In this document: in pieces, positions 21,154 through 37,755 of the stretch
Numbering within the stretch: the first letter of the stretch is position 1
Layout: each line of letters begins with the position of its first letter
DNA from: Candidatus Chisholmbacteria bacterium
GTDB taxonomy: Bacteria; Patescibacteriota; Microgenomatia; UBA1400; Chisholmbacteraceae
Direction: 5' to 3'
DNA: 64,000 nucleotides
Assembly: GCA_963704905.1 (NCBI GenBank)
Contig: CAVPHZ010000002.1
Location: 634 to 64,633 of the forward strand
The notes under the pieces: generated by a model
What the model was told of the DNA's origin: nothing
Database searches by the model: none
The model's input: the letters and a program-made list of their open reading frames with translations, nothing else
Translations under genes and position numbers: made by a program

Positions 21154-22895
21154 ATTCTTTACTCAAGCGTCATTGGGCATTCATCGTCATTGTCTTTCTG
21201 ACAATTCCAGCCATGCTTCCATTATTCAAATCTGGATTCTTTCCCATACATGATGATCAACAGGTGGTTCGATTATTTGAACTGGATCGATCGCTTGCCG
21301 CTGGCCAATTTCCTGCCCGGTGGGTTAAGAATCTTGGCTTTGGATTTGGTTATCCATTATTTATTTTTTATCCACCTTTCATCTACTACCTTGGGGAAAT
21401 ATTTCACCTTGGTTTGGGAACAGGATTTATCGATTCAATAAAATTGGTCTTCGCAGCCGCATTTATTGGGGCAGCATATTCTATGTATCTTTGGGTAAAA
21501 GAGCATTTCGGTAAAGTACCGGCAATTGTTGCCGCAGCATTGTATACCTACGCGCCATATCATGCAGTTGATGCATATGTAAGAGGTGCGCTTGCTGAGC
21601 TCATGTCGTTTGTCTGGCTACCTGTAATTTTACTCGCTACAGATCGGTTAATCACAAAAAAACAAAAGCACTATTGGCTGTGGCTGGGAGTTTTTCTCGC
21701 ACTTCTGATGATCACGCATAATCTTATCTTTCTACCATTTTTCCCACTCTTTCTGATTTACGCTGGCTTTCTCCTTCTAAAAACAACTAATAAAACACCC
21801 CATATACTACATACTATTTACGCTATACTCTTAGCCCTTGGACTCAGTGCCTTCTTCTGGATTCCAGCACTTATTGAAAAGCAATACACGTTGGTAGATT
21901 CAATCTTGCTTTCAGAACTGGCCAGTTACAAACTACATTTTGTTGAGTTACAACAACTATGGAACTCTCTTTGGGGATTCGGCGGCTCAACCGCCGGTCT
22001 CTTAGACGGTCTATCGTTTAAAATTGGTAAACTCCATGTAGTTCTTTCAATATTCTCGGTAGCTGTTTTGGGAGTTTACTACAAGCAGACGCGAGAAAAA
22101 CCAATAACATATTCTGTATTTATTGTCTCAATTCTTACTCTCCTAAGTGTATTCCTCACAACTGTGTTTTCTCAAGTCATCTGGGAAATAGCTAGTCCAC
22201 TGCAATTCCTCCAATTTCCCTGGAGATTCCTGACATTTATCGTTCTTGGTTCTGCATTCCTCTCAGCCGGTTTTATTTATGCCTTCGAGATCATACTCAA
22301 AAACTCACTCGCAACACTTGTCCTAGTGATTACGGTTCTTATTCTTTTATTCATTCCAAACCTCAAACTCTTTGCACCCCAGTCATATCTTGATGTAACT
22401 GATAGCTATTACACATCAGATGATTTCATTAAATGGAGAATCAGCAAAACCAGTTTTGAATTTGTACCAAAAGGAGTTAAAACAACTACGGAATATCAAC
22501 AACTTGAAAATAAAGAGATCACTCAGGTTGCAATAAGCGAAAATGAAATTCGAAAAACAGCATATGAAGTTCTCAGCGGAAATGTTGAAGTAAGTATTGT
22601 CCAAGATAATCCCGGAAATATCATACTAGAAACAAAATCAAGCCAAGAAAGCCAAGTTCAGCTCAATACATTTGATTTCCCTGGCTGGTCGGTACGATTG
22701 GATAGGGAAAATATTCAGCACAGTTCTCAAAATGATTTACATTTGATACGGGTAAATATTCCTGACGGTGAACACACGATTGAAGCAAGATTCTCAGAAA
22801 CCCCAGTAAGAAAGCTTTCAGACCTCATAACTCTCTCATCTCTTGGTATTTTCTTCTACTTTTTATTTAATGAGTACTTACTTAATAAGAAGTGA
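21141..22895 (+). CDS. GT-C-like polytopic membrane protein, divergent YfhO-related family (paralog of 18436/53800)
   Basis: SGFFPIHDDQQVVRLFELDRSLAAGQFPARWVKNLGFGFGYPLFIFYPPFIYYL...YTYAPYHAVDAYVRGALAE, with C-terminal FDFPGWSVRLDRENI. Confidence 0.6.
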   Translation: MEKVNSLLKRHWAFIVIVFLTIPAMLPLFKSGFFPIHDDQQVVRLFELDRSLAAGQFPARWVKNLGFGFGYPLFIFYPPFIYYLGEIFHLGLGTGFIDSIKLVFAAAFIGAAYSMYLWVKEHFGKVPAIVAAALYTYAPYHAVDAYVRGALAELMSFVWLPVILLATDRLITKKQKHYWLWLGVFLALLMITHNLIFLPFFPLFLIYAGFLLLKTTNKTPHILHTIYAILLALGLSAFFWIPALIEKQYTLVDSILLSELASYKLHFVELQQLWNSLWGFGGSTAGLLDGLSFKIGKLHVVLSIFSVAVLGVYYKQTREKPITYSVFIVSILTLLSVFLTTVFSQVIWEIASPLQFLQFPWRFLTFIVLGSAFLSAGFIYAFEIILKNSLATLVLVITVLILLFIPNLKLFAPQSYLDVTDSYYTSDDFIKWRISKTSFEFVPKGVKTTTEYQQLENKEITQVAISENEIRKTAYEVLSGNVEVSIVQDNPGNIILETKSSQESQVQLNTFDFPGWSVRLDRENIQHSSQNDLHLIRVNIPDGEHTIEARFSETPVRKLSDLITLSSLGIFFYFLFNEYLLNKK

Positions 22896-24427
22896 AAAAG
22901 TCTCGAAATGCAAAGCTACTCCCTCAAGAGCAGAAGCTCAAAAAGATCATTATAGTAAGTTGTGGTTTACTTCTAGTAGTCACCTTCTATCTTCATGCTC
23001 GACTGATAGTAATCAATGCTCCAATTGAACTCAGAGAAAGTGCAACTGTTCTTACCACCAGTGCATTACTCAAAGGCATCAACCCATTTTCGCTGGAACA
23101 CACACCGGAATTTATTAATGTACACGGAATTCTATACAACCTTGTTGTCTACCCGTTTGCTGCATTCTTCGGATCTACTTTTTTACTCCATCGTAACGTT
23201 TCTGCTTTTTTTATCTTCGCCTCAACTGTTTTGATTTATTTGGCGATATTGAAGGAGAGTCATTCTTCTTGGCTAGCATTTACAGCATCAGTTTTCATAT
23301 ATTCCCAGATCGTAATTGGCACACCGATTGGGATGTCAGGAGGTTTTGATGTGGTTTCACGACCGGATTCACTTGGAATGTTTTTGTTTTTAGCCAGCCT
23401 GCTCATACCATATTGGTTAAAGTTCAGTAATAGAGGATTAATAGTAGGTTTAACACTTGGAATATTGGCGTTTTTTGCAAAGCCGTACTTTATTCTCGGA
23501 CTTGTCTTTCTAGGCATTTACCTGTTTCTCTTCAATGCAAAGAAGACAGGTCTGATATTTTCACTAGGCGGAGTAGCGCTATTCATATTCGTTGCATGTA
23601 TCGTACAGTATTATTTTGAAACCTATTTTTTTAATGTTGTCCTCATCCATCATGGTATTCGTAGCTGGAGCTTTCCACATCTCATCAGCCAGATTAAGAC
23701 GATAGTTGTGTGGAATGGAGCACCATTAGCCGTGCTCATTTTGTGGCTAACGCAAAAGAAAGCAGCAAGAGTAAAAATTGACTATTTTTCATCAGCGCTG
23801 GTTTTTTTTACGATTATAACTGTTACGCTTTTCGGACCGCACATGGGAAATGCGATGAGCTACTTCACTCACCTCATCACACCTTTTCTGCTTATCTGGG
23901 TTTTTTCCAACATCCAAAATCCTCTATTCAACAAAGATCGCTTGTTTTTATATTTCCTGATAATCGTAAACGTAGGCATAGTGGGATTTGCAGCTACCTC
24001 ATACTATCCAAAAACTCAGATAAATAAGGCAGAGTGGAAGTGGTGGGAACAGCGGTTGAAAAAAAGTGAGAAAATATTTAACTCTTCAGCAACAGCTCAC
24101 ATAGTATTTGAGCAGAATAAGCAGCTCTATGATAATGGCCATTCTGAGTATCTAAAATATGGTCTTGAGACAAACGACAAACTTATGCTTGTACCAAGCG
24201 CAAGAGCTAAGCTGGAAGCGTATACAACTGATATACAGGGTAAAATTCACAGTCAGTTTTTCGACCTCGTTATCATCGGCGAAAATAGTTTTCCGGTCTT
24301 TTCCCGCCAAGAACTTGCCAAGACATATCAACTCGAAGACACGCGCCGAATCACCATGTACAAACAATCTTGGCTAGAAGAACTGTGGATTCCAAGAATC
24401 GATACAGAGGAGGTTAGTGAGAAATGA
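22892..24427 (+). CDS. polytopic membrane protein, uncharacterised (possibly another GT-C-like protein); GTG start
   Basis: 511 aa with about 12 hydrophobic segments and a roughly 150-aa hydrophilic C-terminal domain. No family signature recognised. GTGA overlap with the upstream stop. Confidence 0.5.
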   Translation: MKKSRNAKLLPQEQKLKKIIIVSCGLLLVVTFYLHARLIVINAPIELRESATVLTTSALLKGINPFSLEHTPEFINVHGILYNLVVYPFAAFFGSTFLLHRNVSAFFIFASTVLIYLAILKESHSSWLAFTASVFIYSQIVIGTPIGMSGGFDVVSRPDSLGMFLFLASLLIPYWLKFSNRGLIVGLTLGILAFFAKPYFILGLVFLGIYLFLFNAKKTGLIFSLGGVALFIFVACIVQYYFETYFFNVVLIHHGIRSWSFPHLISQIKTIVVWNGAPLAVLILWLTQKKAARVKIDYFSSALVFFTIITVTLFGPHMGNAMSYFTHLITPFLLIWVFSNIQNPLFNKDRLFLYFLIIVNVGIVGFAATSYYPKTQINKAEWKWWEQRLKKSEKIFNSSATAHIVFEQNKQLYDNGHSEYLKYGLETNDKLMLVPSARAKLEAYTTDIQGKIHSQFFDLVIIGENSFPVFSRQELAKTYQLEDTRRITMYKQSWLEELWIPRIDTEEVSEK

Positions 24428-25449
24428 GTAAGCTTTCAATCTGGGCAAATCTATGTCCAAGAAAGTTATTTTGGGAACTTCGTCAACTTGATGACACACC
24501 CGCTTCAATCAAGCCATGGTGGAAACAAACACAGATCCTCTATAAATGTCTTAAGCTGTTAAAAAACATTGGTATTGATGGTTTGCGTCTCAATATATTT
24601 AATCTGGAACTAACATCAGATGGAAAGCGAATACACTGGAATCGGTTAGAGAAGATCTTAGAAATGACCAGTAAACTAGGGTTGAAGATCGACTATTGTC
24701 TCGGGCCATTTCAATATCCTCAATGGCCAGGCATTCGTCTCCCGGAAAAGATACTTTCTTACTGTGATGGAAGATTAACTCTTGATGAGGTAGATGTCAT
24801 TAAAGAATTTGGTCTGAAATTTCTTGCATTGCAACTGAATCGTCTTGGAAATGATAAGAGAATTTCAAGTTTTTACTTGGGGAACGAATGGCCAAATCGT
24901 CAAGAGATAGAAGGAACTAAAGGCAAGTATATCTCAATCTCCAAAGACTTCATGTTGAAATCAGCAGAACTTTATAAAAACGTAACGAATAAACCAATAA
25001 TCATGAATACCAATATTGACGCAGGTGAAACAAAAAAACTCATAGAAGTTTTTTCTCCTTTTATAGATCTTCTGAGATCACAATTATGGATAGGTCTAGA
25101 TATTTACCCTTCCAGAGAGAACCTTCTGCATCATCCAAAGATATGGTGGCACCGAAAAAGAGGGAACTATATGAGCTCGATAGGAAGGCTCAAAGATGAA
25201 CTCACAAAGAACTTACTCTTTTCTGAAGTTGAAGCCCAACCATGGGGAAAAGGAGAATCATGGGTTGAATATTTCAAGTTAAAGATGGAAACCTACACCA
25301 AGAAAGATTTTAAGAATACAATGAATAACATTATTATCCCCTCGGGATTGGAAAAAACCACACTCTGGGGTGCAGAATTCTGGCTCCTCAGTCATTTTCT
25401 AGGCTTCAACTGGCCACTGAGGATAATTAATGAACTGACATCAACTTAA
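24424..25449 (+). CDS. soluble hypothetical protein, possibly TIM-barrel clan GH-A-like glycoside hydrolase
   Basis: No TM segments or signal peptide. Contains LGNEWPN (reminiscent of the GH-A acid/base 'NEP' motif) and a later EVEAQPWG. This is a weak, motif-only inference. ATGA coupled. Confidence 0.4.
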   Translation: MSKLSIWANLCPRKLFWELRQLDDTPASIKPWWKQTQILYKCLKLLKNIGIDGLRLNIFNLELTSDGKRIHWNRLEKILEMTSKLGLKIDYCLGPFQYPQWPGIRLPEKILSYCDGRLTLDEVDVIKEFGLKFLALQLNRLGNDKRISSFYLGNEWPNRQEIEGTKGKYISISKDFMLKSAELYKNVTNKPIIMNTNIDAGETKKLIEVFSPFIDLLRSQLWIGLDIYPSRENLLHHPKIWWHRKRGNYMSSIGRLKDELTKNLLFSEVEAQPWGKGESWVEYFKLKMETYTKKDFKNTMNNIIIPSGLEKTTLWGAEFWLLSHFLGFNWPLRIINELTST

Positions 25450-25461
25450 ATTCAACACTTT

Positions 25462-26970
25462 TTGAAATGCTACAATAGTTTCATGCAGGAACACACCCCT
25501 GAAGATCGCCTTCTGGAAGAAATCGATATTGAGGAAGTGAAGCATAGGTCTGTAAAAGGCGTCGTTGCCTTAGCTGGTCGAACTGGTTTTCTTCAGACAC
25601 TGACACTTGTAGCAACCTTCATGCTCACAGTATTTCTTTCCCCTCAGGAGTACGGTATATTTTTTGTGGTCTCAGCAGTAGTTAATTTTCTCATCTATTT
25701 TTCCGACATTGGTCTTGCAGCAGCGCTCATTCAAAAGAAAGAAAGTATTGAAGAGGATGATCTCGCTACAACCTTCACTATCCAACAGATGATGGTAGTA
25801 ACCCTTGTTGTAATTTCTCTTTGGGGCTCAGCACACATAGCAGGTTTCTATCAGTTGAGTCCTGGTGGTTTATCGCTCCTCCGTGCTTTGATCGTTGCAT
25901 TTTTCTTATCATCACTCAAAACAATTCCATCAATTATTCTTGAACGTAAACTTCAATTTAATAAACTAATAATTCCTCAAATTGTTGAAAATATTGTTTT
26001 TTATTCGGTAGCCGTCTACTTTGCCTGGCAAGGAAAGGGAGTTGAAAGTTTTACTGTAGCAGTTCTGCTCAGAGGATTATCGGGGTTGTTTGTTATGTAT
26101 CTCCTCCAACCATGGAGGCCAGCCTTCGCTTTCAAGAGAAAATCTGCCAAACAACTCCTGTCTTTTGGTGTTCCCTTTCAGGCCAATAGCTTGCTTGCAC
26201 TGGTAAAAGATGATTTACTCACAGCCTATTTAGGCAGAGTACTGACACTTGCTGAGGTAGGTTTTATCGGATGGGCACAGCGCTGGGCGCTAACTCCATT
26301 ACGGTTTTTCAGCGATAGCATCATCAAAGTCACCTTCCCAGCCTACTCACGGTTACAACACGAAAAGGAAGCACTAAAAAAGGCAGTAGAAAAATCCATA
26401 TTTGCAGTTGCTACAGTTGTCTTCCCATCCGTAGTTGGGTTAATAACCATTGCACCGGCAATGATTCAAATTATTCCCCGATATGAAAAGTGGCAACCTG
26501 CACTTCTATCACTAACTCTTTTTGGAGTGAATGCACTCTGGTCTTCAATTTCTACCACCCTTACCAATACGCTCAATGCAACCGGGCACATCAAAAAAAG
26601 CCTGATGCTCATGGTAATGTGGACGACGTTGACATGGGTGTTAACACCCGTACTTATAGCAGTAGTCGGATTCAATGGTGTTGCGTTGGCCTCAGCATTA
26701 ACAGCCACGTCCTCAATCGTTGCCATTTATCTCGTCAGAAAGATTGTCCAAATTGAGATCATGCCCAACATTACCGCACCGATCATTTCTACCGCAATGA
26801 TGGGCGCTCTCGTATATGCGCTTACGCCAGTACTAGCCTCTTCATTAGCTAGAATCGGTCTATTGATACTGACTGCTGTTATACTGTATGCGTTTTTAAT
26901 GATGTTGTTTGCGGGCAAAAAAGTGCTTCAAGAATTTGCTTTGGTTAGGAATTATTTAAAGACTAAATGA
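25462..26970 (+). CDS. Wzx-like polysaccharide/oligosaccharide flippase (MOP superfamily, Polysacc_synt family)
   Basis: 502 aa with about 12-14 TM segments; the N-terminal region VKHRSVKGVVALAGRTGFLQTLTLVATFMLTVFLSPQEYGIFFVVSAVVNFLIYFSDIGLAAALIQ is typical of Wzx/RfbX-type exporters. Confidence 0.75.
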   Translation: MKCYNSFMQEHTPEDRLLEEIDIEEVKHRSVKGVVALAGRTGFLQTLTLVATFMLTVFLSPQEYGIFFVVSAVVNFLIYFSDIGLAAALIQKKESIEEDDLATTFTIQQMMVVTLVVISLWGSAHIAGFYQLSPGGLSLLRALIVAFFLSSLKTIPSIILERKLQFNKLIIPQIVENIVFYSVAVYFAWQGKGVESFTVAVLLRGLSGLFVMYLLQPWRPAFAFKRKSAKQLLSFGVPFQANSLLALVKDDLLTAYLGRVLTLAEVGFIGWAQRWALTPLRFFSDSIIKVTFPAYSRLQHEKEALKKAVEKSIFAVATVVFPSVVGLITIAPAMIQIIPRYEKWQPALLSLTLFGVNALWSSISTTLTNTLNATGHIKKSLMLMVMWTTLTWVLTPVLIAVVGFNGVALASALTATSSIVAIYLVRKIVQIEIMPNITAPIISTAMMGALVYALTPVLASSLARIGLLILTAVILYAFLMMLFAGKKVLQEFALVRNYLKTK

Positions 26971-27875
26971 AAATATCGGTAGTAATCACCGCTCATAACG
27001 AGGAAAAGATGATTGAGGATTGCCTCAAGTCTGTAAACTGGGCAAATGAGATTATTCTCGTAGATAACGAATCAAGTGACAATACTGGCACAATTGCGAA
27101 AAAATTTACAGATAAAATATTCACTCATAAAAACGATCCAATAAATTTGAATGACAGCAAAAACTTTGGATTTACTAAGGCTTCCGGAGATTGGATCTTA
27201 AGTATAGATGCGGACGAACGAATTAGTCCTGAACTTCACAAAGAGATAATCCAAAGACTCATGGGCGCTCCTGACTATGTCGATGGCTATCTTATACCAA
27301 GAAAAAATATCATCTTTGGAAAATGGATTAAGCATGGTCTGTGGTATCCAGACCACCAACTGAGACTATTTAGAAAAGGTAAAGGAAAATTCCCAAGCAA
27401 ACACAACCACGAACTTCTTGAAGTTAAGGGTCAGACATTAGAACTTAAACAACACATCGTCCACCTCAACTACACCTCAGTAGATCAATATCTTAACAAA
27501 ATCGCTTATTACTACTCTGACAATGAAGCTGAACAATACCTCAATTCTGGGAAAAAGCTCCAGTGGTATGATGCTATTCGAATGCCAGCTTCAGATTTTC
27601 TCCTTAATTTCTTCGCCAGAAGTGGGTACAAAGACGGTTTACATGGGTTAGCATTGAGTTTACTGCAGTCGTTTTACATGTTCATTGTGTTTGCTAAAGT
27701 TTGGGAAAAACAAGGATTTTGGGAATACAATAGTAAAGAATTTCTTGAGGATACAAAAAAAGAATTCATTTCAAAAGGAAAAGAATTGCGGTACTGGATC
27801 AGTCGAACAAGGGAAGAAAATAGCGGCGATATTGAACGACTACTGTTGAAAGTCAAACGGAAACTACTTCCATGA
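26967..27875 (+). CDS. GT2 glycosyltransferase, WaaE/KdtX-like subfamily
   Basis: ISVVITAHNEEKMIEDCLKSVNWANEIILVDNESSDNTGTIAKKF...WILSIDADERISPEL. Paralogous to the 36140 and 55548 genes. Confidence 0.8.
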   Translation: MKISVVITAHNEEKMIEDCLKSVNWANEIILVDNESSDNTGTIAKKFTDKIFTHKNDPINLNDSKNFGFTKASGDWILSIDADERISPELHKEIIQRLMGAPDYVDGYLIPRKNIIFGKWIKHGLWYPDHQLRLFRKGKGKFPSKHNHELLEVKGQTLELKQHIVHLNYTSVDQYLNKIAYYYSDNEAEQYLNSGKKLQWYDAIRMPASDFLLNFFARSGYKDGLHGLALSLLQSFYMFIVFAKVWEKQGFWEYNSKEFLEDTKKEFISKGKELRYWISRTREENSGDIERLLLKVKRKLLP

Positions 27876-29014
27876 GTAGCCGAAGGGCATACGGAGTACT
27901 TCTCTTAATCATTACTCTTTTCTTTCTTTCATACCTTGTACAAGGACTTGGATTTTTATATGGAGATAACTTGGGTCAGAGAATTCCAGGCATATATTTT
28001 TGGAAAAATGAAGTAACCAGCGGACGATTACCACTTTGGAATCCATATATTCTTGGGGGATTACCTTTTCTCGCAGATCTTTCTCATAACGCGCTTTCAC
28101 CGACCAATATTGTCTATCTAGTAATGTCAGTTCCCTATGCTATTACCGCGTTAACAATAATCTACATCGCCATCGCAGCTTGTGCAACCTACGCGTATGT
28201 ACATAGCGTAACCAACAAAACGCTGCCGAGCATGTTTTCTGCGATTACATTTGCCCTATCAGGTACTGTAATCGCATCAGTAAATGACATCAACTCTTTG
28301 CAGGGTATTACACTTGTTCCGCTTGTGTTGTATGGAGCTCATCGTTTCACAGAAAAAGCAAACAATACCAGAGCATTAATACTTATCTTTGCATTAGTAT
28401 TTCAATTTTTATCCTCACATCCACAGTACAGTTACTACTCATGGATTCTGGTCGCAAGTTACATTGTTGTGTTTGGAACAGGGAAACTGAAAGTAAGAGT
28501 AGCAAAAACATTTGCTGTATTTCTCTTTACTCTCGGACTAATCGCCGTGCAGCTCTTACCTTTTTTAGAGCTTGCTCGAGAGTCATATCGTCCGCAAACA
28601 AGTGAGTTCGCAGCCCAAAATCAACTCAAAATCATTGAACTGCCATCATTTATACTCGCTGATCTATTCGGATCGTGGAGAAGTGGTTCATCTTGGGGTC
28701 CAGGAGCACAGTTAGAAACAGGTCTGGCAAATTCTGAGGGGTATCTTGGCATCCTACCGCTTTTGTTTGCGGTTATCGCAGTCTTAAAGAGGAAATCGAA
28801 ACGGACAAAGTATTGGGTTGTAGCAGGACTCATTGCACTTCTGCTGAGCCTAGGAAATCAAACACCGTTGTATGAATTAGTAAGGCGAGCCTTACCACTT
28901 TTTTCAAATTTCCGATCACCAATACGGATGTTATCTATCTACAGCTTCTCGGTATCAGTATTAGCTGGAGTAGGCCTTTCAGCAATTAAAGTGGAAAGGA
29001 AAAGGAAGAAATGA
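27872..29014 (+). CDS. YfhO-like GT-C membrane protein, N-terminal half (split gene)
   Basis: GRLPLWNPYILGGLPFLADLSHNALSPTNIVYLVMS is the YfhO loop signature. The protein ends after SFSVSVLAGVGLSAIK, the position where full-length paralogs continue (compare FAASVLAGYGFDAW in the 13036 protein). Confidence 0.7.
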   Translation: MSSRRAYGVLLLIITLFFLSYLVQGLGFLYGDNLGQRIPGIYFWKNEVTSGRLPLWNPYILGGLPFLADLSHNALSPTNIVYLVMSVPYAITALTIIYIAIAACATYAYVHSVTNKTLPSMFSAITFALSGTVIASVNDINSLQGITLVPLVLYGAHRFTEKANNTRALILIFALVFQFLSSHPQYSYYSWILVASYIVVFGTGKLKVRVAKTFAVFLFTLGLIAVQLLPFLELARESYRPQTSEFAAQNQLKIIELPSFILADLFGSWRSGSSWGPGAQLETGLANSEGYLGILPLLFAVIAVLKRKSKRTKYWVVAGLIALLLSLGNQTPLYELVRRALPLFSNFRSPIRMLSIYSFSVSVLAGVGLSAIKVERKRKK

Positions 29015-30153
29015 GGCAGATTCTCTATTCAATTGTAGGCACAACTTTCCAAGCTGTGAAACGCCGGCCAATGACAGAAAGTGCAGCTTTTTCTCAAGAT
29101 AAAGTAAATATTATTCTCGATACGAATATCCAAAATATTTTCATCGTACTCGCTATCATAATCATTGCATTGTATGTGGTTAAGAAAAAACGACACCTGT
29201 TGTACCAAGTGATAGTGATCTTAACAATCATAGATCTCTTTACTTTTTCCAAAGGTAATCTCATCACGTTCCCAATATCAATTACCAGTCTAGAAAGCAG
29301 CGCTTCTAAATGGCTTAAACAAAATCTTGGTAATTATCGATTTGTATCAACAAGCGGGAACTTTCCCTATACAGGCTTGGGTGTGTACTGGACACATTTA
29401 AGAGCCAGGGAGCCGTTTTCTCCAAATAACCTTACAGGTGAAGAGTTAAAGCAATTCACAAGACTAAAAAAAGAACTGACGGTCATTCCGGAGAATCAGG
29501 GTCTCAGGAGTAACATCGCTGATGCATCTGGCTACGCTGCAGCAATACCATCAAATTATCTCCATTTTTGGAATGAAGAGCCAAAAAGCCCCAACACAAC
29601 ATCCATTCAAGACTTAAACAGCAACAAACTTAACTTGGCTGGAGTTAAGTACGTTATTACTGGCTATCCCGATGATTATCTAGCTTCACTCGACTCAGTT
29701 CAATTTGAAAGAGTATTTGGTGAAGACCATGTTCAAATTTACGAAAATCAGGATGTAATTCCTCGAGTATTTTTACTCGATAACAACCAAGATCAATATC
29801 CCGCTCAAATTATTGACTACTCTCCAAATCGAGTACTAATTGAAACCGAACTAGATAGGATTTCTGAACTTGTTTTGACTGACACTTTTTACCCTGGCTG
29901 GACTGCGTATGTTGACGGAGAACCTTCGTCTGTAGAATCTTATGAAGGTGCATTTCGAAAGGTAGCTCTTCCGTTCGGGAAGCACATTGTTGAATTTCGC
30001 TATGAACCCGATTCTCTCAGGTTGGGTGCTATAATTTCAGCAAGCACTGTAGTTTTACTTTTCTCAAGCTTAATATGGCAAAAACAAAAGTCGCAATTAT
30101 CATCCTCAATTTCAAAGGCAAACAAGACACGATCGAATGCCTTCAGTCGCTAA
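29011..30153 (+). CDS. YfhO-like GT-C membrane protein, C-terminal half (split gene)
   Basis: Begins with TM helices and ends with the YfhO-type C-terminal domain DTFYPGWTAYVDGEPSSVESYEGAFRKVALPFGKHIVEFRYEPD. It is in a different frame from the N-terminal half, with an ATGA junction. Confidence 0.7.
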   Translation: MRQILYSIVGTTFQAVKRRPMTESAAFSQDKVNIILDTNIQNIFIVLAIIIIALYVVKKKRHLLYQVIVILTIIDLFTFSKGNLITFPISITSLESSASKWLKQNLGNYRFVSTSGNFPYTGLGVYWTHLRAREPFSPNNLTGEELKQFTRLKKELTVIPENQGLRSNIADASGYAAAIPSNYLHFWNEEPKSPNTTSIQDLNSNKLNLAGVKYVITGYPDDYLASLDSVQFERVFGEDHVQIYENQDVIPRVFLLDNNQDQYPAQIIDYSPNRVLIETELDRISELVLTDTFYPGWTAYVDGEPSSVESYEGAFRKVALPFGKHIVEFRYEPDSLRLGAIISASTVVLLFSSLIWQKQKSQLSSSISKANKTRSNAFSR

Positions 30154-31007
30154 AGAATATCAAAACTGATTCAGTAATTGTCAGCACCATTGTTGTTGAC
30201 AACGCTTCAAGCGACTCGTCAGCTACTGAAATACATAAGCAGTTTCCAAACATTGATCTTATCGAAAACAATACTAATCTGGGTTTTAGCGAGGGAAACA
30301 ATATTGGCATTCGCAAGGCACTTGTTGATGGTGCTGACTTTATCTTGCTTCTCAACAACGATACGACAGTTCATTCAGATCTATTAGAAGAACTTGTATC
30401 AGCATCGAACCAGGAGAATGCCGATGTCATCTCCCCAAAAATCTACTTTACGCCTGGAAAAGAATTTCATCAGGACAGATATAAACCACATGAGCGGGGA
30501 AAAGTAATTTGGTATGCCGGGGGACTCATCGATTGGAATAATGTCCTTACATCACATCGAGGAGTTGATGAGGTGGACGAAGGACAATTCGATGAGTTTT
30601 CCAGGACAGAATTTGTAACTGGCTGTGCAATGTTTGTGAAATATAAGGTATTTGAAGATATTGGCTTGCTTGATCCAATGCTATTTGCCTACTTTGAAGA
30701 TGCAGATTTTTCCATGAGGGCCAAGAATGCCGGCTACAAAGTTGCCTATGCACCAAAAGCCGTACTATGGCACAAGAACGCTGCCAGTTTCCAAGGTTCA
30801 GGATCAGAATTTCAAGATTACTTTGTCACTAAAAACCGACTGCACTTCGGTTTGCGCTACGCTCCACTGCGTGCCAAAATTGCTCTACTTCGTGAAGGAT
30901 TACGATATATTTTCGAAGGACCACAGAGAAAACGAGAAGCTATCATCGATGCGCTGTTGAGAAAATCGCCAGACCAGAATAAAGTAACATCGCTTTTGAA
31001 AACCTAG
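30075..31007 (+). CDS. GT2 glycosyltransferase (RfbF/WbbL-like rhamnosyltransferase-type subfamily)
   Basis: VAIIILNFKGKQDTIECLQSL...IVVDNASSDSS...NLGFSEGNNIGI...LLLNNDT. The start overlaps the upstream gene by about 79 nt if the first Met is used. Confidence 0.78.
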   Translation: MAKTKVAIIILNFKGKQDTIECLQSLKNIKTDSVIVSTIVVDNASSDSSATEIHKQFPNIDLIENNTNLGFSEGNNIGIRKALVDGADFILLLNNDTTVHSDLLEELVSASNQENADVISPKIYFTPGKEFHQDRYKPHERGKVIWYAGGLIDWNNVLTSHRGVDEVDEGQFDEFSRTEFVTGCAMFVKYKVFEDIGLLDPMLFAYFEDADFSMRAKNAGYKVAYAPKAVLWHKNAASFQGSGSEFQDYFVTKNRLHFGLRYAPLRAKIALLREGLRYIFEGPQRKREAIIDALLRKSPDQNKVTSLLKT

Positions 31008-31041
31008 ATTTAGCCGGCTCACTTCGCTACAATAGCGACCG

Positions 31042-31770
31042 ATGGCTAAACAACCTTTCCTCTCACTTATAATCCCTGTATATAACGAAGAAAAGCGGAT
31101 TAAATATGGTCTGACACAGATTTTCTCCTTTCTTAAAAATAAGAAGTTCAGCTGGGAATTAATCATCGTGGATGACGGATCCATTGATAACACAGTTGCA
31201 CTAGCTAAAAAACTCACACTCACAATAAAGACTGTAAAGATACTCAACAGCAACCATCAAGGAAAAGGTGGGGCGCTCAAAAAAGGGGTAAAGAGTGCAC
31301 AAGGAGAGTGGCTCATCTTTTTTGATATCGATATCGCAACCCCAATGGATGAATACAATAATTTCGAAAAATGGATGGGTAGGTTCGATGTCATCATTGG
31401 ATCACGAAAAATGAAAGGGGCGCATATAGAAGTACATCAACCATTTTTTCGAGAATTTGGCGGGAAAGTATTTACCCTACTTACAAACACGCTGGTAACG
31501 AGAAATATTTCGGATGTTACTTGTGGCTTTAAACTCTTTAAAACCAAAATCGCCAAAGATCTGTTCCAGCGCTCAAGGCTCGCAGATTGGAGTTTTGACG
31601 CCGAGATTCTTTACTTAGCGCAAAAAAAAGGTGTGAAAATCAAAGAAGTTCCTGTTCGTTGGAAGGATGACCCTCAAACAAAAGTCAATCTTATGAAAGA
31701 TACCATCGATGCGTTTTATGGGCTTCTTAAAATCCGCTTCAATGACTTCCAAGGTTTGTACGATCGTTAA
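31042..31770 (+). CDS. GT2 glycosyltransferase, polyprenyl-phosphate sugar synthase (Alg5/DPG-synthase-like)
   Basis: LSLIIPVYNEEKRI...LIIVDDGSIDNT...GKGGALKKGV...FFDIDIATP...IGSRKMKGA...CGFKLFKTKIAKDLF. Confidence 0.88.
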   Translation: MAKQPFLSLIIPVYNEEKRIKYGLTQIFSFLKNKKFSWELIIVDDGSIDNTVALAKKLTLTIKTVKILNSNHQGKGGALKKGVKSAQGEWLIFFDIDIATPMDEYNNFEKWMGRFDVIIGSRKMKGAHIEVHQPFFREFGGKVFTLLTNTLVTRNISDVTCGFKLFKTKIAKDLFQRSRLADWSFDAEILYLAQKKGVKIKEVPVRWKDDPQTKVNLMKDTIDAFYGLLKIRFNDFQGLYDR

Positions 31771-32503
31771 GTTTTCTGCTAAGACAAACAATAGATAATC
31801 CAAACGGCATACGAATGTGCTGGAGAACCGACGCCTCAACGGTGGTGATTTGAACGAGCAACCAATTAATTGATTTTGGGACCTCAATAAAATCTGAACG
31901 CTGCTTCATAGATTTTCCGAAAATTGACTTAGCAACTCGAACAATAATTGCGACAGGAACCAAATACCAATAAAAATATGAGCTCATCTCAACCTCAAAT
32001 CCAGTCTCCTTCAACTTTGCAACAAGAGCACGACGACGATATCGCCGTTTATGTCCCAGTACTTCATCCCAATAAGTCCATAGCCATGGGTAAGCAGGTA
32101 CAGTGAGTACAAATCTGCCTCCCGGTTTTAAAACTCTCTGAATCTCAGAAAGAATGAGCCTATCGTTATCCAAATGCTCAAGTACGTCGAGCATTGTGAC
32201 AGCGTCGAATAGTTCATTTTGGAACGGAAGCGGCTTAGTGAGATCAGTGGCTGCGACATTTGAAAATCCACGTTTTTTACAATACGATATCGCCTTTGTC
32301 GAGCCGTCAACCCCAAATACCTCTCCAAACCTGGAAAAATCTTTCATCATCATGCCTGTTCCACATCCAATATCTAGAAATCTTGGATCTTGTAGTGAAT
32401 TGAGATATGAGTCAAGCATACGAAGAATAAGACGGCGCTTCGCCACATGCCACCAATAGGTGGACTCAAGCCGGTACATTTCATCAAAAAGATCGCTACG
32501 CAT
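31739..32503 (-). CDS. class I SAM-dependent methyltransferase
   Basis: This is the only substantial minus-strand gene. It carries SAM motif I FLDIGCGTGMMM, VFGVDGS, FDAVTMLDVLEHL and LKPGGRFVLTVP. Its 3' end overlaps the 3' end of the + strand GT2 at 31042..31770 by 32 nt (convergent overlap). Confidence 0.85.
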   Translation of the reverse strand: MRSDLFDEMYRLESTYWWHVAKRRLILRMLDSYLNSLQDPRFLDIGCGTGMMMKDFSRFGEVFGVDGSTKAISYCKKRGFSNVAATDLTKPLPFQNELFDAVTMLDVLEHLDNDRLILSEIQRVLKPGGRFVLTVPAYPWLWTYWDEVLGHKRRYRRRALVAKLKETGFEVEMSSYFYWYLVPVAIIVRVAKSIFGKSMKQRSDFIEVPKSINWLLVQITTVEASVLQHIRMPFGLSIVCLSRKLNDRTNLGSH

Positions 32504-32554
32504 AATTTTCTCAACAGGTTTGTCTATAATAGCAGGAGAGAACCTATTCTAGCT

Positions 32555-34480
32555 ATGCAAAACCTGTTGATAAACATACTGCTTTTTATGTCTGTCTTTT
32601 GCGTTTTGTGGTGGTTACCAGGACTCTATTTGTTGCCTAAGGACAAAAACCTCAAGACTTTAGATAAAAGTTTTCTTGCCGTAACACTCGGTGTTAGCAT
32701 TTATTCTTTAGTTATATATATCGTTCGTCTTGTTGGATTGCCATTTTGGATTGGATATTTTCCATTTTTATTCTTGACATTTCGGTTCTTCCGGACAAGA
32801 ACCATTTCACTTTCAAGATTAAAAATGAAATCCGTGACTGCGACCTTTATCATGATCATGCTCATTTCAGCAGCTATCCAAGCCCTGGTGCTCACTAGAA
32901 GTGCCAATCTGACATCAGAAGGAATGAGCTTTATTGAATTGTCCGCCCATGACTCTCTGCAACATGTGTATCTGATCAATGAACTAAAGGATCATTTTCC
33001 TCCTAGGCATCCCGGATACTCACCGATAGAGGTTAAAAATTATCACTTTCTTATCGATGTCACGCTCGCTTCAATCTCAAAATATCTTCCATTTTCAACC
33101 TTTCATCTGTATTACAGAATTCTTCCCCTAGCCGTATCAGCTCTGTTTAGTATCGGTGTATTTACATTTATACGTCATCTGACGAAATCTCCATGGCTTG
33201 CCAACGCAGCCGTAGTACTTACAATATTTTCTGGAAACGCTGCATGGGTTATGAAGTTTTTCCGAGGTGATGAATTCACGGTTAGCGCAAATTCCTTCAT
33301 GCTCGATCCGGTGATAGATCTTCTGCAAAATCCCATGGCAGTGTTGGTCTTTCCTCTCATGATTGCCGGAAGTTGGACGCTGCTGAACCTGGAAAAAAAG
33401 CCAAACCTCAAATGGAACTTCATTGGTGCAATCCTCTTGGGCGTAATGATTGGATTTAAAGCCTGGGGTGGCACGCTAATGTTAATTGGTCTTGGAGTAC
33501 GTGCTATCTACCTAAGTGTATGGAGAAAGAGAATGGATGGTTGGGTCACGACTTTCTTGACATTGGGTGTTGCGCTAACCATCATGCTTCCTGTCTATGA
33601 TCGGCAAACTGCAGCCAACCCGATTTTCACACCGGGCTGGCTCCTGAAACGAATGGTAGAGGATCATGATAGGTACAATACGTTAAACGATTATTTTCTC
33701 GAACAGCATTACAGAGAAAAAGGAAATCTTCCGCGTTTGATTCAGCTCAACGTAAAACAGCTCGCAATCTATACTTTTGGAAATCTGTGGATAAAGTTCC
33801 TGGGACTGGTGTATTTTGCAAAACTTATAAAAAAACCATCTGGGTTTGGAGTATTTCTTCTCACTGTTACAGTCTTTTCACTTTTTCTGCCAGTGCTGTT
33901 TAACCAGGGCAGAATGTCATATGACATCATCCAATTCGGACCATATGCGTTGGTGTTGATGTCACTATTTACAATAGTATCTCTGCCTTTGATATTAAAG
34001 CGATTTTCATCAATAACTTCCGGCATCATTGTTGGTATACTCTTGCTCCTTTCGTTTCCCTCAAACATCAAAAGTATTCAAGATAGATATAGAGCTGACA
34101 GCTTCCTAGTGACAAATCAAGAGCTCGAGGCATTTGAATATATAAAACAACATACAGATTTAAGCAGTACTCTCATGGTATATCCATCTCATAGAAATGA
34201 TTCAAGTCTGCTCGTGGCTGCATTCACTGGTCGTCCCACCTATTTTTCAGGCAAATCATTTGCGCGAATCACCGGTGAAGATTATGAAGGAAGGGCAATT
34301 CGCTGGAAGGAGTTTTTCAACCAGGCGAACCCTGGAGAACGACAACAAACTCTTAAAGATGGCTCTATTGGCTATCTCTTACTTACTTCTGAAGAAGAAC
34401 ATACGTTCAACAAAACCGGACTAAATCTTAAAACAGTATATTCAAATGAAGAAACGATCATCTACCAAATCCAAAATTGA
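32555..34480 (+). CDS. polytopic membrane protein, GT-C-like, unrecognised family (paralog of 34446)
   Basis: About 640 aa with at least 12 TM segments. N-terminal loop signature ELSAHDSLQHVYLINELKDHFPPRHPGYSPIEVKNYHFLIDV is shared with the downstream paralog. The start was chosen at internal Met 32555, because the ORF-track start at 32447 would overlap the divergent minus-strand methyltransferase. Confidence 0.6.
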   Translation: MQNLLINILLFMSVFCVLWWLPGLYLLPKDKNLKTLDKSFLAVTLGVSIYSLVIYIVRLVGLPFWIGYFPFLFLTFRFFRTRTISLSRLKMKSVTATFIMIMLISAAIQALVLTRSANLTSEGMSFIELSAHDSLQHVYLINELKDHFPPRHPGYSPIEVKNYHFLIDVTLASISKYLPFSTFHLYYRILPLAVSALFSIGVFTFIRHLTKSPWLANAAVVLTIFSGNAAWVMKFFRGDEFTVSANSFMLDPVIDLLQNPMAVLVFPLMIAGSWTLLNLEKKPNLKWNFIGAILLGVMIGFKAWGGTLMLIGLGVRAIYLSVWRKRMDGWVTTFLTLGVALTIMLPVYDRQTAANPIFTPGWLLKRMVEDHDRYNTLNDYFLEQHYREKGNLPRLIQLNVKQLAIYTFGNLWIKFLGLVYFAKLIKKPSGFGVFLLTVTVFSLFLPVLFNQGRMSYDIIQFGPYALVLMSLFTIVSLPLILKRFSSITSGIIVGILLLLSFPSNIKSIQDRYRADSFLVTNQELEAFEYIKQHTDLSSTLMVYPSHRNDSSLLVAAFTGRPTYFSGKSFARITGEDYEGRAIRWKEFFNQANPGERQQTLKDGSIGYLLLTSEEEHTFNKTGLNLKTVYSNEETIIYQIQN

Positions 34481-36143
34481 TATAGAGGTAAAAGCACTTA
34501 CACCGGCCGAAAAATTAGTTCTCGGATTTGTGTTAGTGGTAGCGAGCGTAACTCAAAGCTGGCATTTTTTCACAGCTTGGAAAATGAAAGCAGAAACCAT
34601 TGAGTTCAGCCAGTTTCATGATGCACTATGGCACATAGCGCTTATTAAAGAACTCTCCCGATCGTTCCCACCTCAGCATCCGGGGTTAGCAGGAGAAATA
34701 TTGAGTAATTATCATTACCTTACGGATCTTCTCCTTGCGATAGTTCATAAGTTCACAACCATTCCTGTCGAAACGCTGTATATTCACGTCGCTCCGCCAC
34801 TCGTGTCTGCTTTTTTTGCCTTTGCAGCATTTAAACTCGCTCAGCTGTTAAGCAGGTCAAATGAAACTGCAATCATAGCAACAATATTTACCGTGTTTAC
34901 TGGAAGCGCAGCATACTTCATTCCCGTGTTTTTAGGCAAAGGGGTAGCTTGGACAGCCAACTCATTCATGCTTGACCAGCCCTTTGATCAACTCACCAAT
35001 GTGCATACTGTCCTTGGCTTTGCGATGTTTTTGACTGGAACGTTTTTTCTGGTGCGTTTCAACAAATTCAGCAAATTATCAGACGGAATCCTTGCCGGCA
35101 TGATAATTGGTCTTGCAACAGGCATAAAAGCCTATGCAGGAGCAGTAGGAGTCGCAGCTTTGATGATCACGTTAGGTCTGGAACTAACCATATTGAAAAA
35201 GCGAAAAATGATATTGCCATCAGCAATTGCAGCAAGTATATTTTTACTCCTGACCGTATTTACTTCCTCATCAAATCAATCTCCACTCCAATTCGCCCCT
35301 GGATGGATCCTCACCAAGATGGTCGAAGATTCTAACCGCTTCTATTACGAAAAGTGGTCACAGCTGGAAGCTCATTATCGTGAAGCTGGAAATATCATTC
35401 GCGTAGCACAAATCAAAACCCAGGAGCTGGTCCTGTATATTATTGGCAACCTCGGTGTCCGTTTGATTGGCTTTATCTGGATCATAAAAAAATTGAAAAA
35501 ACTCAAACACATAAAAGCTCACGAAATATTCCTGATCGTAACCATCATCATTTCTCTGACCATTCCACTTATCTTTGTCCAACCGGTGTCGGTCTACAAT
35601 ACCATTCAATTTAGTCCATACGCGCTCATGATACTCAGTATCGTAGTTGTTCTAGAGACGGTAACTTGGAGAAAGAATATTCTCATGTTAACTCTTCTCT
35701 TCCTGCTGTCGCTACCCACAACCCTTCAGACATTTCTGATTCGATTAAAACCTGAGTACATCATGAGTAAAAATGAATACACAGCCCTAAAAGCTATCGA
35801 AAATACACCCGAAGATGCAGTATTTCTCACACCTCCAACAGGAGAACACTTCGTATTTATGAAAGTTCCGGGGATAGGTGGAAGAAGAACCTACTTTTCA
35901 GGAGAAACGTTCGCCATACTCACGGATACTGATTACCAGCTTCGTAAATCCATAAACGAGGAATTTTTTAGAGAACTGACTGATGACCAGAGGCGTAATC
36001 AAATACTCGAAGATGCTAAAATTACACATATCTATACTGATGAGAGTACATATACCGAGTTTCTTGAAGAATTAGAGGAAGGAAGATTTCCGATCAAAGC
36101 AATCTATACGCAGGATAAATTTGCTATTTTTAAGCGCATATGA
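34446..36143 (+). CDS. polytopic membrane protein, GT-C-like, unrecognised family (paralog of 32555)
   Basis: FHDALWHIALIKELSRSFPPQHPGLAGEILSNYHYLTDLLLAIV aligns with the 32555 protein; multi-TM core plus a hydrophilic C-terminal domain. Confidence 0.6.
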   Translation: MKKRSSTKSKIDIEVKALTPAEKLVLGFVLVVASVTQSWHFFTAWKMKAETIEFSQFHDALWHIALIKELSRSFPPQHPGLAGEILSNYHYLTDLLLAIVHKFTTIPVETLYIHVAPPLVSAFFAFAAFKLAQLLSRSNETAIIATIFTVFTGSAAYFIPVFLGKGVAWTANSFMLDQPFDQLTNVHTVLGFAMFLTGTFFLVRFNKFSKLSDGILAGMIIGLATGIKAYAGAVGVAALMITLGLELTILKKRKMILPSAIAASIFLLLTVFTSSSNQSPLQFAPGWILTKMVEDSNRFYYEKWSQLEAHYREAGNIIRVAQIKTQELVLYIIGNLGVRLIGFIWIIKKLKKLKHIKAHEIFLIVTIIISLTIPLIFVQPVSVYNTIQFSPYALMILSIVVVLETVTWRKNILMLTLLFLLSLPTTLQTFLIRLKPEYIMSKNEYTALKAIENTPEDAVFLTPPTGEHFVFMKVPGIGGRRTYFSGETFAILTDTDYQLRKSINEEFFRELTDDQRRNQILEDAKITHIYTDESTYTEFLEELEEGRFPIKAIYTQDKFAIFKRI

Positions 36144-36937
36144 ATAAGATCTCATGCATCGTCCTTACATATAATGAACAGGAATACCTTCCAGGATGTC
36201 TGCAGTCACTCGGCTGGGTTGATGAAATTGTCATTATTGATGCTGGATCGGCTGACGATACGCTGAAGATAGCCGAGAAGGCCGGTGCGAAGATAGTTAA
36301 AAATTCATGGCACGGGTTTCCAAATCAACGAACTATTGGCGCCAAACATGCCAGCGGTGAGTGGATTCTGTACATCGATGCTGACGAGCGAGTCTCTTCA
36401 AAACTAAAAGAAGAAATTCAAGTACTTTTGAGAAATAATCCAGCATTTCATTCGTATAAAATACCTCATAAAAATTACATTCTGGGGAAATGGTTGAAAT
36501 ACGGAGGTTGGTATCCTGAATATCAACACCGACTCATGAAAAGAAGTGAATTACATAGATGGAACGGAGAACTCCATGAACATCCGATCATAGATGGAGA
36601 AGTAGGCATTCTCGAAGGAGAAATCATTCATCTGACCCATCGAGGAATGGAATGGATGCTGAATAAAACAATTCGCTACACCAAAATGGAAGCCGATTTA
36701 CGTTTTCAAGCCAATCACCCAAAAATCAAGGCTCATCATTTCTTCTCATCAACACTTCGGGAATTTTGGTATCGAGCAATAACCAAGAACGGTTGGAAAG
36801 ATGGAATTATCGGCTGGATTGAAATATTTTATCAGTCTTTTAATCACTTTCTGATTATGGCATGGCTATGGGAGATGCAGAGAAAAGAAGATATTCACAC
36901 CACATACAAAAAACTAGATGAGGAGTTATCAGAGTGA
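36140..36937 (+). CDS. GT2 glycosyltransferase, WaaE/KdtX-like subfamily
   Basis: ISCIVLTYNEQEYLPGCLQSLGWVDEIVIIDAGSADDTLKIAEKAGAKIV...WILYIDADERVS. ATGA coupled. Confidence 0.82.
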   Translation: MNKISCIVLTYNEQEYLPGCLQSLGWVDEIVIIDAGSADDTLKIAEKAGAKIVKNSWHGFPNQRTIGAKHASGEWILYIDADERVSSKLKEEIQVLLRNNPAFHSYKIPHKNYILGKWLKYGGWYPEYQHRLMKRSELHRWNGELHEHPIIDGEVGILEGEIIHLTHRGMEWMLNKTIRYTKMEADLRFQANHPKIKAHHFFSSTLREFWYRAITKNGWKDGIIGWIEIFYQSFNHFLIMAWLWEMQRKEDIHTTYKKLDEELSE

Positions 36938-37755
36938 GCTATAAACAATTTGTACCCGACGTAGGTGAAGAGTGGGATGAGTATTGGAAAAAAACTTCAA
37001 TCAGCAAAGAACTCAAGCTAATTGACACCGACGGTCTTCGCCCTATTTTTTCAAAATTTCTTCCAAAAAAAGGAAAAATTCTCGAAGCTGGCTGTGGTAT
37101 GGGTAAATGGGTTGTTGACCTTTCAAAGAAAGGCTATGACATCATTGGTGTTGACAATAATAAATATGCACTCAAGAAACTGAATGAGTTCGATCCAAAA
37201 ACCAAAGTCAGGTTAGCGGATGTTACCAAACTTCCATATGCTGATGAGACATACGATGCGTATCTATCCCTGGGCGTTATTGAGCACTTTGAAGAGGGAC
37301 CGCAGAAAGCGCTCAGCGAAGCGTACCGCATACTAAAGCGGGGTGGATTGGCGATTGTCGAAGTTCCATTCGATTCATTGCTTCGAAAAATAACCAGACT
37401 TTTCACAATGTTACTTATCTCAATTAAAACGCCTGCGAGGATTACACTCCAACGTATCGGACTAAGAAAGCCGCGCGAACGATTTAAAATGATGTTCTAT
37501 GAATACCGCTACACAGTTCAGGAGCTAACGGACTTCATGAAAGAAGCGGGATTTGAAGATATGAAAATTATATCTAAAGACGACCTAAAAGAGACGAGAA
37601 GTATTGGTTTGTGGTTGGACTATCAATTTCTCCACCATCCAAATGGAGAGCTATTTGAATTAAATGATCTTGGAAAAATAGTAAAAGCTGTTCTCAACTT
37701 TGTTTCACCATTTACGTATTCAGCGCTTATCGTCGCAGTTGCAAAAAAGAAATGA
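36934..37755 (+). CDS. class I SAM-dependent methyltransferase (GTG start)
   Basis: GKILEAGCGMGKW (motif I), DIIGVDNN, YDAYLSLGVIEHF and LKRGGLAIVEVP. GTGA overlap with the upstream stop. Confidence 0.82.
   Translation: MSYKQFVPDVGEEWDEYWKKTSISKELKLIDTDGLRPIFSKFLPKKGKILEAGCGMGKWVVDLSKKGYDIIGVDNNKYALKKLNEFDPKTKVRLADVTKLPYADETYDAYLSLGVIEHFEEGPQKALSEAYRILKRGGLAIVEVPFDSLLRKITRLFTMLLISIKTPARITLQRIGLRKPRERFKMMFYEYRYTVQELTDFMKEAGFEDMKIISKDDLKETRSIGLWLDYQFLHHPNGELFELNDLGKIVKAVLNFVSPFTYSALIVAVAKKK

Follow-up and report, generated by a model that had tools for sequence, protein, structure and literature searches.

A probable ancient fission of a YfhO-type GT-C glycosyltransferase gene in Candidatus Chisholmbacteria and related lineages

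Glycosyltransferases of the GT-C type build or decorate most cell-surface glycans, from N- and O-glycoproteins to teichoic acids, lipid A and mycobacterial arabinan, and they are hard to express and to study. To our knowledge, every GT-C catalytic subunit described to date is a single polytopic chain. Examples from the YfhO family are YfhO of Bacillus subtilis and Staphylococcus aureus (N-acetylglucosamine, GlcNAc, on lipoteichoic acid), YfhO of Listeria monocytogenes (GlcNAc on wall teichoic acid), and PgfM1 and PgfM2 of Streptococcus mutans. Among GT-B enzymes, ALG13/ALG14 and the bacterial EpsE/F-type pairs form a naturally split UDP-GlcNAc transferase in which two polypeptides yield one active enzyme. 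GT-C enzymes are themselves described as modular, with conserved transmembrane (TM) helices 1-7 followed by variable later helices (PMC12653191, PMC10154233). The closest working analogue of the case described here is the heterodimeric GT-C enzyme glycosylphosphatidylinositol (GPI) mannosyltransferase I (Gpi14/PIG-M with Pbn1/PIG-X), whose Pbn1/PIG-X chain combines a beta-rich extracytoplasmic (luminal) domain with a TM helix at its C-terminus that packs against the variable module (PMC12653191). Here, we analyze a 64,000-nucleotide (nt) stretch of a Candidatus Chisholmbacteria genome (the window) in which a YfhO-type gene is divided into two consecutive open reading frames (ORFs), hereafter half A and half B. 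Based on comparisons of sequences, we consider it likely that A and B derive from an ancient fission of a GT-C glycosyltransferase gene, that this fission has been kept by selection and that the two chains reassemble as one enzyme.

The split locus and its relatives

Half A is encoded at 27872..29014 and half B at 29011..30153, both on the forward strand. Each ORF is 380 amino acids (aa) long and B lies in the +2 frame relative to A, the ATG of B (29011) sharing bases with the TGA of A (29012-29014) in an ATGA at 29011..29014 (+). These are the coordinates and frames of the initial annotation, which had also described an N-terminal YfhO half followed by a C-terminal half carrying PGW. Indeed, both halves score above the gathering score of the Pfam YfhO family (PF09586, 28.5 bits): for A, positions 61-357 of the 835-position profile give 35.6 bits, and for B the score is 54.2 bits with the best stretch at positions 754-835, and a YPGW motif is found at residues 294-297 of B. 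Taken together, the two matches extend to both ends of the 835-position profile, which places the pair in the YfhO family by sequence. NCBIfam C-terminal matches to PgfM2/PgfM1 were also obtained for B, far under the cut-off. The equal length of the two halves is a coincidence; their relatives range from 377 to 403 aa for A and from 332 to 375 aa for B. The ATGA of A and B is not special either, 4-nt overlaps being present at 19 of the 47 same-strand gene junctions of the window.

A search over 5.8 billion proteins returned approximately 20 homologues of A (39-59% identity, all of 377-403 aa) and 12 homologues of B (43-48% identity, all of 356-375 aa), with several A/B pairs located on a shared contig. 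The DNA of the window was compared with that of the Candidatus Chisholmbacteria loci L002/L012 (one species in two assemblies, identical in this region) and L013, a Patescibacteria metagenome-assembled genome (MAG; L010), the MAGs L014 and L015, and the metagenome contigs L004-L009. At the locus of every relative, A is directly followed by B, which brings the split to 12 further lineages, or 13 with the window, at 35-60% identity. Looking for the same split in related genomes, as the initial annotation had proposed, therefore recovered it at one homologous residue in all lineages, right after the helix ...FRSPxR..SxYSF....LAGxGL and a short basic tail. The order of the operon is also the same: a Wzx-like flippase, a family 2 glycosyltransferase (GT2), A, B, a GT2, a 242-aa GT2 and a methyltransferase on the opposite strand. 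One of the contigs with this Chisholmbacteria-type split operon, that of L015 (CAYMQI010000008.1), is labelled 'uncultured Pseudomonadales bacterium', and the label of the bin or contig is probably wrong.

We estimated the proportions of synonymous (pS) and nonsynonymous (pN) differences from codon alignments of nine loci. Across all 36 pairs, and for A and B alike, pS was saturated (0.71-0.87) and pN ranged from 0.25 to 0.48. For most pairs pS lies beyond the Jukes-Cantor limit, and the values given are therefore raw proportions; where the correction was possible, dN/dS was 0.13-0.33. As expected for a split enzyme, both halves are separately encoded, conserved and, by these codon comparisons of nine loci, under purifying selection. 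Poor conservation of the second half had been named beforehand as a sign of decay; on the contrary, B is under purifying selection and keeps long invariant motifs. In addition, the pairwise identities among A halves track those among B halves (r = 0.81; none of 5000 Mantel permutations reached this value), which indicates that the halves were inherited together. The earlier suggestion that both halves could be translated, here taken as separate translation and use of each, is strongly supported by this evolutionary record, in which the split was kept and both halves remained under purifying selection.

Loss of the connecting helix and the junction

Three full-length YfhO paralogues of 749-787 aa are encoded in the window (13036..15342, 15339..17702 and 38844..41093). 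A and B align end to end with these single chains at ~25% identity, and this includes the 13036 gene, which had been suggested for such a comparison. The profile of A was also run over 1.84 billion cluster representatives and yielded 3,984 hits at E < 1e-30. Three representatives of the split family scored 440-593 bits, followed by a drop to single chains mostly of 715-790 aa, and Candidatus Beckwithbacteria OGD63320.1 (785 aa) is a member of the cluster that gave the best single-chain match. The split family is nested in thousands of single chains of ~750 aa, which indicates that the split form is derived.

BLASTP aligned the single-chain protein P0056 with both halves: its residues 18-389 pair with 8-373 of A (35% identity) and its residues 424-784 with 5-362 of B (31% identity). 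The intervening residues 390-423 of P0056 (QKNFISKKELSILLGTSITFLIIVLELWVMNPNT) hold a strongly hydrophobic helix of 19-20 residues, TM11, with a hydropathy peak at 401-419; the counterpart of this helix in P0052 peaks at 405-423. Neither alignment nor hydropathy revealed a counterpart of TM11 in A or B, and this indicates that the fission came with a deletion of the connecting helix. The initial annotation had placed the break in a loop, which is true of its position, but a whole TM helix of the single-chain relatives is also missing there. The pair thus departs from the single-polypeptide architecture of YfhO proteins (~650-900 aa), with two 380-aa ORFs and one TM helix fewer.

A fresh pseudogene had initially been viewed as equally plausible. 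Under this explanation, which also covers assembly or sequencing errors, a 1-nt indel within the A-rich stretch 28993-29011 would have disrupted a single-chain yfhO gene in the recent past. Both frames are closed near the junction (a TAA six codons 5' of the ATG of B closes the frame of B, and the frame of A ends at 29012-14), which confines a hypothetical single frameshift to this 19-nt purine run. The junction does lie in a homopolymer-rich stretch, a probable decayed GT-C gene is present at 11461-13031 of the same window, and a truly frameshifted YfhO gene is known at locus L019. The latter (P0048, 802..3583) is a high-GC YfhO-like gene with ORFs of 543 and 343 aa that we used as a negative control: TM11 is present, and the other frame is open and homologous across the break, which indicates an assembly frameshift or a recent pseudogene. 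We rejected it as another split and view it as a frameshifted full-length gene on a contig of 2x coverage. In contrast, A and B are found as intact ORFs in the 12 other lineages with pN well below pS in both halves, and their 35-60% identity excludes that the related loci are mis-assemblies of one template. Moreover, correcting a single nt would not yield a normal protein, since the linking TM helix is missing. The presence of the split in these lineages and the purifying selection observed despite saturated synonymous sites rule out a fresh pseudogene, and we consider the probability of this explanation, errors included, to be negligible. A second candidate was also rejected as another split: at L020 (P0029), a 425-aa YfhO-like gene is followed by an unrelated gene.

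The halves appear to differ in the way they enter the membrane. A would constitute the N-terminal TM core of a YfhO-type GT-C enzyme, with approximately ten TM helices (AlphaFold2, AF2, and hydropathy), Lys/Arg clusters on the cytoplasmic side and a Lys-rich tail (KVERKRKK) that is predicted to be cytoplasmic. In B, a KKKRH cluster lies between the two N-terminal TM helices. This cluster, together with the need for the large domain of B to be outside, suggests that the first TM helix runs from outside to inside and that the N-terminus is extracytoplasmic; B would thus insert N-out. The N-tail of B measures 32-38 aa in the subclade of the window and is homologous to the outer juxtamembrane amphipathic helix and AYNPEK motif of the single chains. 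In a second subclade (L008, L009, L014 and L015), B begins right at the AYNPEK motif and its N-tail is 13-18 aa long with 0-1 basic residues (measured in L008 and L009).

The junction between the two ORFs differs among lineages. It consists of ATGA in eight of them (window, L002/L012, L004, L006, L007, L010, L013 and L015) and of TAAttATG, with a 2-nt spacer, in L005, and the ORFs overlap by 38, 32 and 14 nt in L008, L009 and L014, respectively, where B is in the +1 frame. B possesses its own ATG in all lineages, at most ~40 nt from the stop of A. As far as these sequences tell, the junction has been remodelled during evolution while the two ORFs were kept. Alternatively, the two ORFs could represent a recoding signal, with programmed ribosomal frameshifting at the A-rich junction producing a fused enzyme of ~760 aa. 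The Lys-codon runs before the junction are A-rich and potentially slippery, L004 presents the heptamer A_AAA_AAG in the right frame for a -1 shift, and most lineages have B in the -1 (+2) frame. However, no slippery heptamer is conserved and none is found in the window, the frame relation varies (+2 in nine lineages, +1 in L008, L009 and L014, and a spacer in L005), and each B has a start codon of its own. The absence of TM11 further implies that a fusion of A and B, by read-through or by frameshifting, would have its ends on the wrong sides of the membrane, the tail of A lying in the cytoplasm while B begins on the outer side. Recoding is disfavoured by this geometry, which suggests that the chains need to stay separate. 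We consider programmed frameshifting to be very improbable.

How B is initiated can be approached from the same junction. A purine-rich run, GTGGAAAGGAAAAGGAAGAA (28990..29010, +), codes for the Lys/Arg tail of A and contains AAGG/AGGA Shine-Dalgarno-like cores 9-15 nt before the ATG of B. The initial annotation had treated the absence of any sequence resembling a ribosome-binding site as an indication of decay; such a sequence is present before B in the window, but it is not conserved in relatives, the core being found only in the window and in L010 among the relatives compared. Because of this lack of conservation, the run is probably incidental to the Lys codons of A. Few genes of the window possess such a core, and a Shine-Dalgarno-driven start was rejected as a general mechanism for B. 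The same lack of conservation makes translational coupling the likelier route. Judging from the gene arrangement, B is most likely initiated by termination-reinitiation, like its neighbour genes, with the ATGA at 29011..29014 (+) as the likely coupling site, and this would favour equal amounts of A and B. At its 3' end, B is overlapped by the downstream GT2 gene (30075..31007), which begins 79 nt inside B. The overlapped stretch encodes the cytoplasmic tail of B, which is variable in length and sequence across the family, and comparable overlaps of 37 nt were found in L007 and L010.

Module content, operon and a second fission

The alignment of 20 homologues revealed that D32, PLWNP, ADL, NDINSLQG, QFxSxHPQY, SWGP..ETG and FRSPxR are conserved in A. 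Asp32 (codon 27965-27967), located in the first outer loop, is invariant in 20 members of the split family and in the three single-chain paralogues. An acidic residue in the first extracytoplasmic loop is a trait of GT-C enzymes, and Asp32, whose catalytic role is putative, conforms to it. The AF2 model of A alone was obtained with a predicted template modelling score (pTM) of 0.84 and a mean predicted local distance difference test (pLDDT) of 78. When this model was compared to the PDB with Foldseek, the best seven matches and 13 of the 14 best were GT-C enzymes; matches with this fold include STT3, PglB, ArnT, Pmt4, EmbC/EmbA-B, DPY19 and ALG9. STT3 and PglB were matched with a probability of 1.0 and a TM-score of ~0.5, but with E-values of only ~1e-2. 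These models suggest that A adopts the polytopic TM core arrangement of GT-C enzymes. Searching the sequences of the PDB with the profiles of A and of B identified no solved relative. By the published modular description of GT-C enzymes, the split is located inside the variable module and not at a module boundary.

Half B is predicted to possess three TM helices and an extracytoplasmic domain, based on its Pfam YfhO match, an alignment of 15 homologues and an AF2 model. The model of B alone presents an N-terminal amphipathic helix (residues 2-17), two TM helices (residues ~29-59 and 61-79; nt 29095-29247, +), a region of mixed alpha/beta structure, a beta-sandwich predicted with confidence (residues ~205-331) and, as the C-terminal anchor, a further TM helix (residues ~334-356; nt 30010-30078, +), after which the tail is unconserved. 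The conserved motifs of B are YTGLGVYWTHLRAREPFSPN, GYAA, YPGW and GxH. The invariant YTGLGVYWTHLRAREPFSPN-type motif belongs to the extracytoplasmic domain (residues 119-139; nt 29365-29427, +), and the YPGW is placed on the beta-sandwich (nt 29890-29901, +), its P295, G296 and W297 being invariant in the family. The most conserved motif of B adjoins the membrane. In the PDB, the fold of B is best matched by a periplasmic sandwich, that of the GT-C arabinofuranosyltransferase AftD; accessory sandwiches of glycoside hydrolases come next. A review suggests that AftD, and probably YfhO as well, possesses an outer carbohydrate-binding domain for acceptor recognition (PMC8035078).

The neighbouring genes are consistent with a glycosylation system. 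Upstream of A are a MOP/Wzx-type flippase (25462..26970, +; Pfam Polysacc_synt_3, 1.4e-52), syntenic in all relatives with enough flank and with NCBIfam matches to MOP flippases and O-glycosylation flippases under the cut-offs, and a syntenic GT2 (26967..27875, +; Pfam Glycos_transf_2) that overlaps A by 4 nt. Downstream of B, the GT2 at 30075..31007 (+), identified by Pfam, NCBIfam and synteny, is followed by a 242-aa GT2 of the polyprenyl-phosphate sugar synthase type (31042..31770, +) and by an S-adenosylmethionine-dependent methyltransferase (31739..32503, -), both syntenic in relatives. In NCBIfam, the 242-aa GT2 comes closest to dolichyl-phosphate hexose transferase, PgfS, ArnC and PpgS, with no match reaching the cut-off, and its best sequence matches in the PDB are GtrB sll0501, Dol-P-Man synthase and ArnC. 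By homology, this enzyme is the probable source of a lipid-linked donor for the GT-C enzyme. The genes of the synthase-like GT2, the flippase and the GT-C enzyme lie next to one another and keep this synteny in relatives, but their assignment to one system is ambiguous, as there are two further GT2 genes. The layout resembles that of the multi-component transmembrane glycosylation systems of Gram-positive bacteria, which act in the glycosylation of teichoic acids and cell-wall polysaccharides (PMC8035078, PMC5836110).

A possible mechanism can be outlined from these elements. A (TM1-10, with the invariant Asp32 in its outer loop) would be the catalytic core and would end in the cytoplasm with its Lys-rich tail. 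B, translated by coupling at the ATGA, would insert by itself, with a short N-terminus outside, two TM helices, an extracytoplasmic domain ending in a beta-sandwich that resembles carbohydrate-binding domains, and the C-terminal anchor. The two chains would then associate in the membrane and rebuild the YfhO architecture with no covalent link, B supplying the conserved motifs close to the membrane and the acceptor-binding domain. Based on gene context, the donor may be a polyprenyl-phosphate sugar that the nearby 242-aa GT2 synthesizes and the Wzx-type flippase of the operon brings across the membrane, and the predicted enzyme would glycosylate some cell-surface acceptor.

Several observations weigh against this scenario. 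The N-out insertion of B is deduced from hydropathy, homology and the positive-inside pattern, and with its 2-5 Lys/Arg the N-tail of the window subclade is less than ideally suited to translocation. Modelled alone with AF2, B gave a mediocre result (pLDDT of 66), and in the separate models of A and B confidence was low for the most conserved loops; these low-confidence loops are compatible with an active-site region formed between the chains and equally with shallow alignments. The matches of the partner GT2 and flippase also lie under the curated family cut-offs. It is conceivable, then, that the halves are functionally separate, A alone being a compact GT-C enzyme and B an independent membrane-anchored glycan-binding or accessory protein that forms no stable complex with it. 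A alone folds confidently in silico (pTM 0.84), the 425-aa YfhO-like gene of L020 has no B-like neighbour, and compact GT-C enzymes lacking large outer domains exist, for which a review speculates that a second protein recognizes the acceptor (PMC8035078). However, A and B are strictly adjacent in 13 lineages and at a further locus (L021, described below), with the start of B overlapping the stop of A or at most 2 nt from it. The two halves also co-diverge, B keeps TM12-13 of the single-chain bundle, and its most conserved motif adjoins the membrane. We find functional separation unlikely and favour the physical assembly of A and B into one enzyme, which we infer from this shared inheritance and homology.

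The locus L021 (5001..7008) presents a second case. Its N-terminal half, P0113 (372 aa), ends at the same loop and is followed, with a 14-nt overlap, by a 300-aa C-terminal half with a Pfam YfhO match, YPGW and a C-terminal TM helix. P0201, a homologue 79% identical to P0113, is likewise 372 aa long. P0100, the closest relative (59% identity), has no break at the junction and retains TM11 and the outer loop, which are both absent from the L021 pair. The gene neighbourhood is different, with PMT_2 genes, Fur and a Zip transporter. In a neighbor-joining tree of the N-terminal regions, the main split clade was monophyletic in 100 of 100 bootstraps, with the unsplit P0052, P0056 and P0057 as its neighbours, and L021/P0201 grouped with the unsplit P0100 and P0202 in 100 of 100. 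The two split groups formed one clade in none of 100, which indicates that fission at this loop, with loss of the helix, happened at least twice. The evidence for the L021 fission comes from one contig and one protein, and P0100 is probably cut at its C-terminus by the end of its contig.

More tentatively, we propose that YfhO-type GT-C enzymes consist of two self-inserting modules, TM1-10 with the catalytic loops and TM12-14 with the acceptor-binding outer domain, joined by a dispensable connector helix. This arrangement would have been cut at the connector at least twice with deletion of the helix, giving obligate heterodimers whose C-module inserts N-out with no signal sequence. Such a generalization is possible, and we hold it to be slightly more doubtful than not. 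If true, the C-module could be an exchangeable subunit for acceptor specificity, which may help to explain the very large GT-C repertoire of small-genome bacteria of the Candidate Phyla Radiation (CPR), and the split would offer a natural design for dividing GT-C enzymes in structural and engineering work.

The rest of the window is of a similar nature. Nearly the entire 64 kb (1..64000) forms one same-strand glycan-biosynthesis array of ~40% GC with at least 20 GT-C-type membrane glycosyltransferase genes (PMT_2, PTPS_related, GT87 and YfhO) in addition to GT2 genes, which is unusually dense for a small-genome CPR-type bacterium. Scans of the window for tRNA genes and Rfam families gave no matches. 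The probable decayed GT-C gene (11461..13031) is the largest gap of the array with no long ORF: its first ORF, 11461..11940 (159 aa), matches no more of the GT-C paralogue at 7713..9080 than its first ~90 residues (38% identity), and the following 1.1 kb contains only short membrane-like ORFs in differing frames, in contrast to the clean split of A and B. At 18436..21153, a 905-aa protein presents tandem GT-C-type Pfam matches (PTPS_related at 78-368 and PMT_2 at 608-748) and may have arisen by fusion of two GT-C units; the Chisholmbacteria locus L001/L002 and L004 have a gene of matching size (903-908 aa) at the equivalent position. Downstream of the operon, two large ORFs of 677 and 565 aa (32447..36143) have no match in Pfam or NCBIfam and are syntenic with similar unannotated genes of 648-668 aa in L001, L008 and L010, and are thus conserved members of this membrane cluster.

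Comparison with known systems

Full-text literature searches returned no paper on GT-C glycosyltransferases together with gene fission, and a search on CPR bacteria together with GT-C glycosylation gave no results. A naturally split GT-C enzyme would represent a cut site that is tolerated inside a membrane bundle, has been kept past the saturation of synonymous sites and has arisen twice. This suggests that the C-terminal module of TM helices and outer domain folds and inserts independently, and the split offers a direct test of which part recognizes the acceptor. It also provides an example of the fission of a polytopic membrane protein in which removal of the odd helix leaves the topology unbroken. 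In practice, half-size 'YfhO family' ORFs of this kind in Patescibacteria should not be called pseudogenes. The case is therefore relevant to glycobiology, membrane-protein evolution, CPR biology and annotation practice.

The split enzyme shares with the single-chain YfhO family (PF09586) the Asp of the first extracytoplasmic loop, the YPGW and GxH motifs, an alignment from end to end and scores above the Pfam cut-off. Its operon, with a flippase and a GT2 similar to polyprenyl-phosphate sugar synthases, also resembles the three-component systems (PMC8035078, PMC5836110). It differs from the single-chain forms in being encoded by two genes, in the deletion of TM11, in the need of the C-module for an N-out insertion of its own and in an identity of 24-35%. 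The best structural matches, STT3/PglB/AglB and AftD, have the same succession of a TM bundle and a C-terminal extracytoplasmic acceptor-binding domain, but they present no detectable sequence relationship to A or B and their catalytic subunit is a single chain in all cases.

Two-chain enzymes differ in other respects. ALG13/ALG14 is a soluble or peripheral GT-B enzyme with two Rossmann domains, split at the natural linker between domains, whereas the split described here lies inside a polytopic membrane bundle and required the loss of a TM helix. In GPI mannosyltransferase I, Pbn1 has only one TM helix and is not known as a product of GT-C fission. In contrast, B possesses three TM helices, the homologues of TM12-14 in the single chain, and its complex with A is predicted from the genes, whereas GPI mannosyltransferase I is a working heterodimer.

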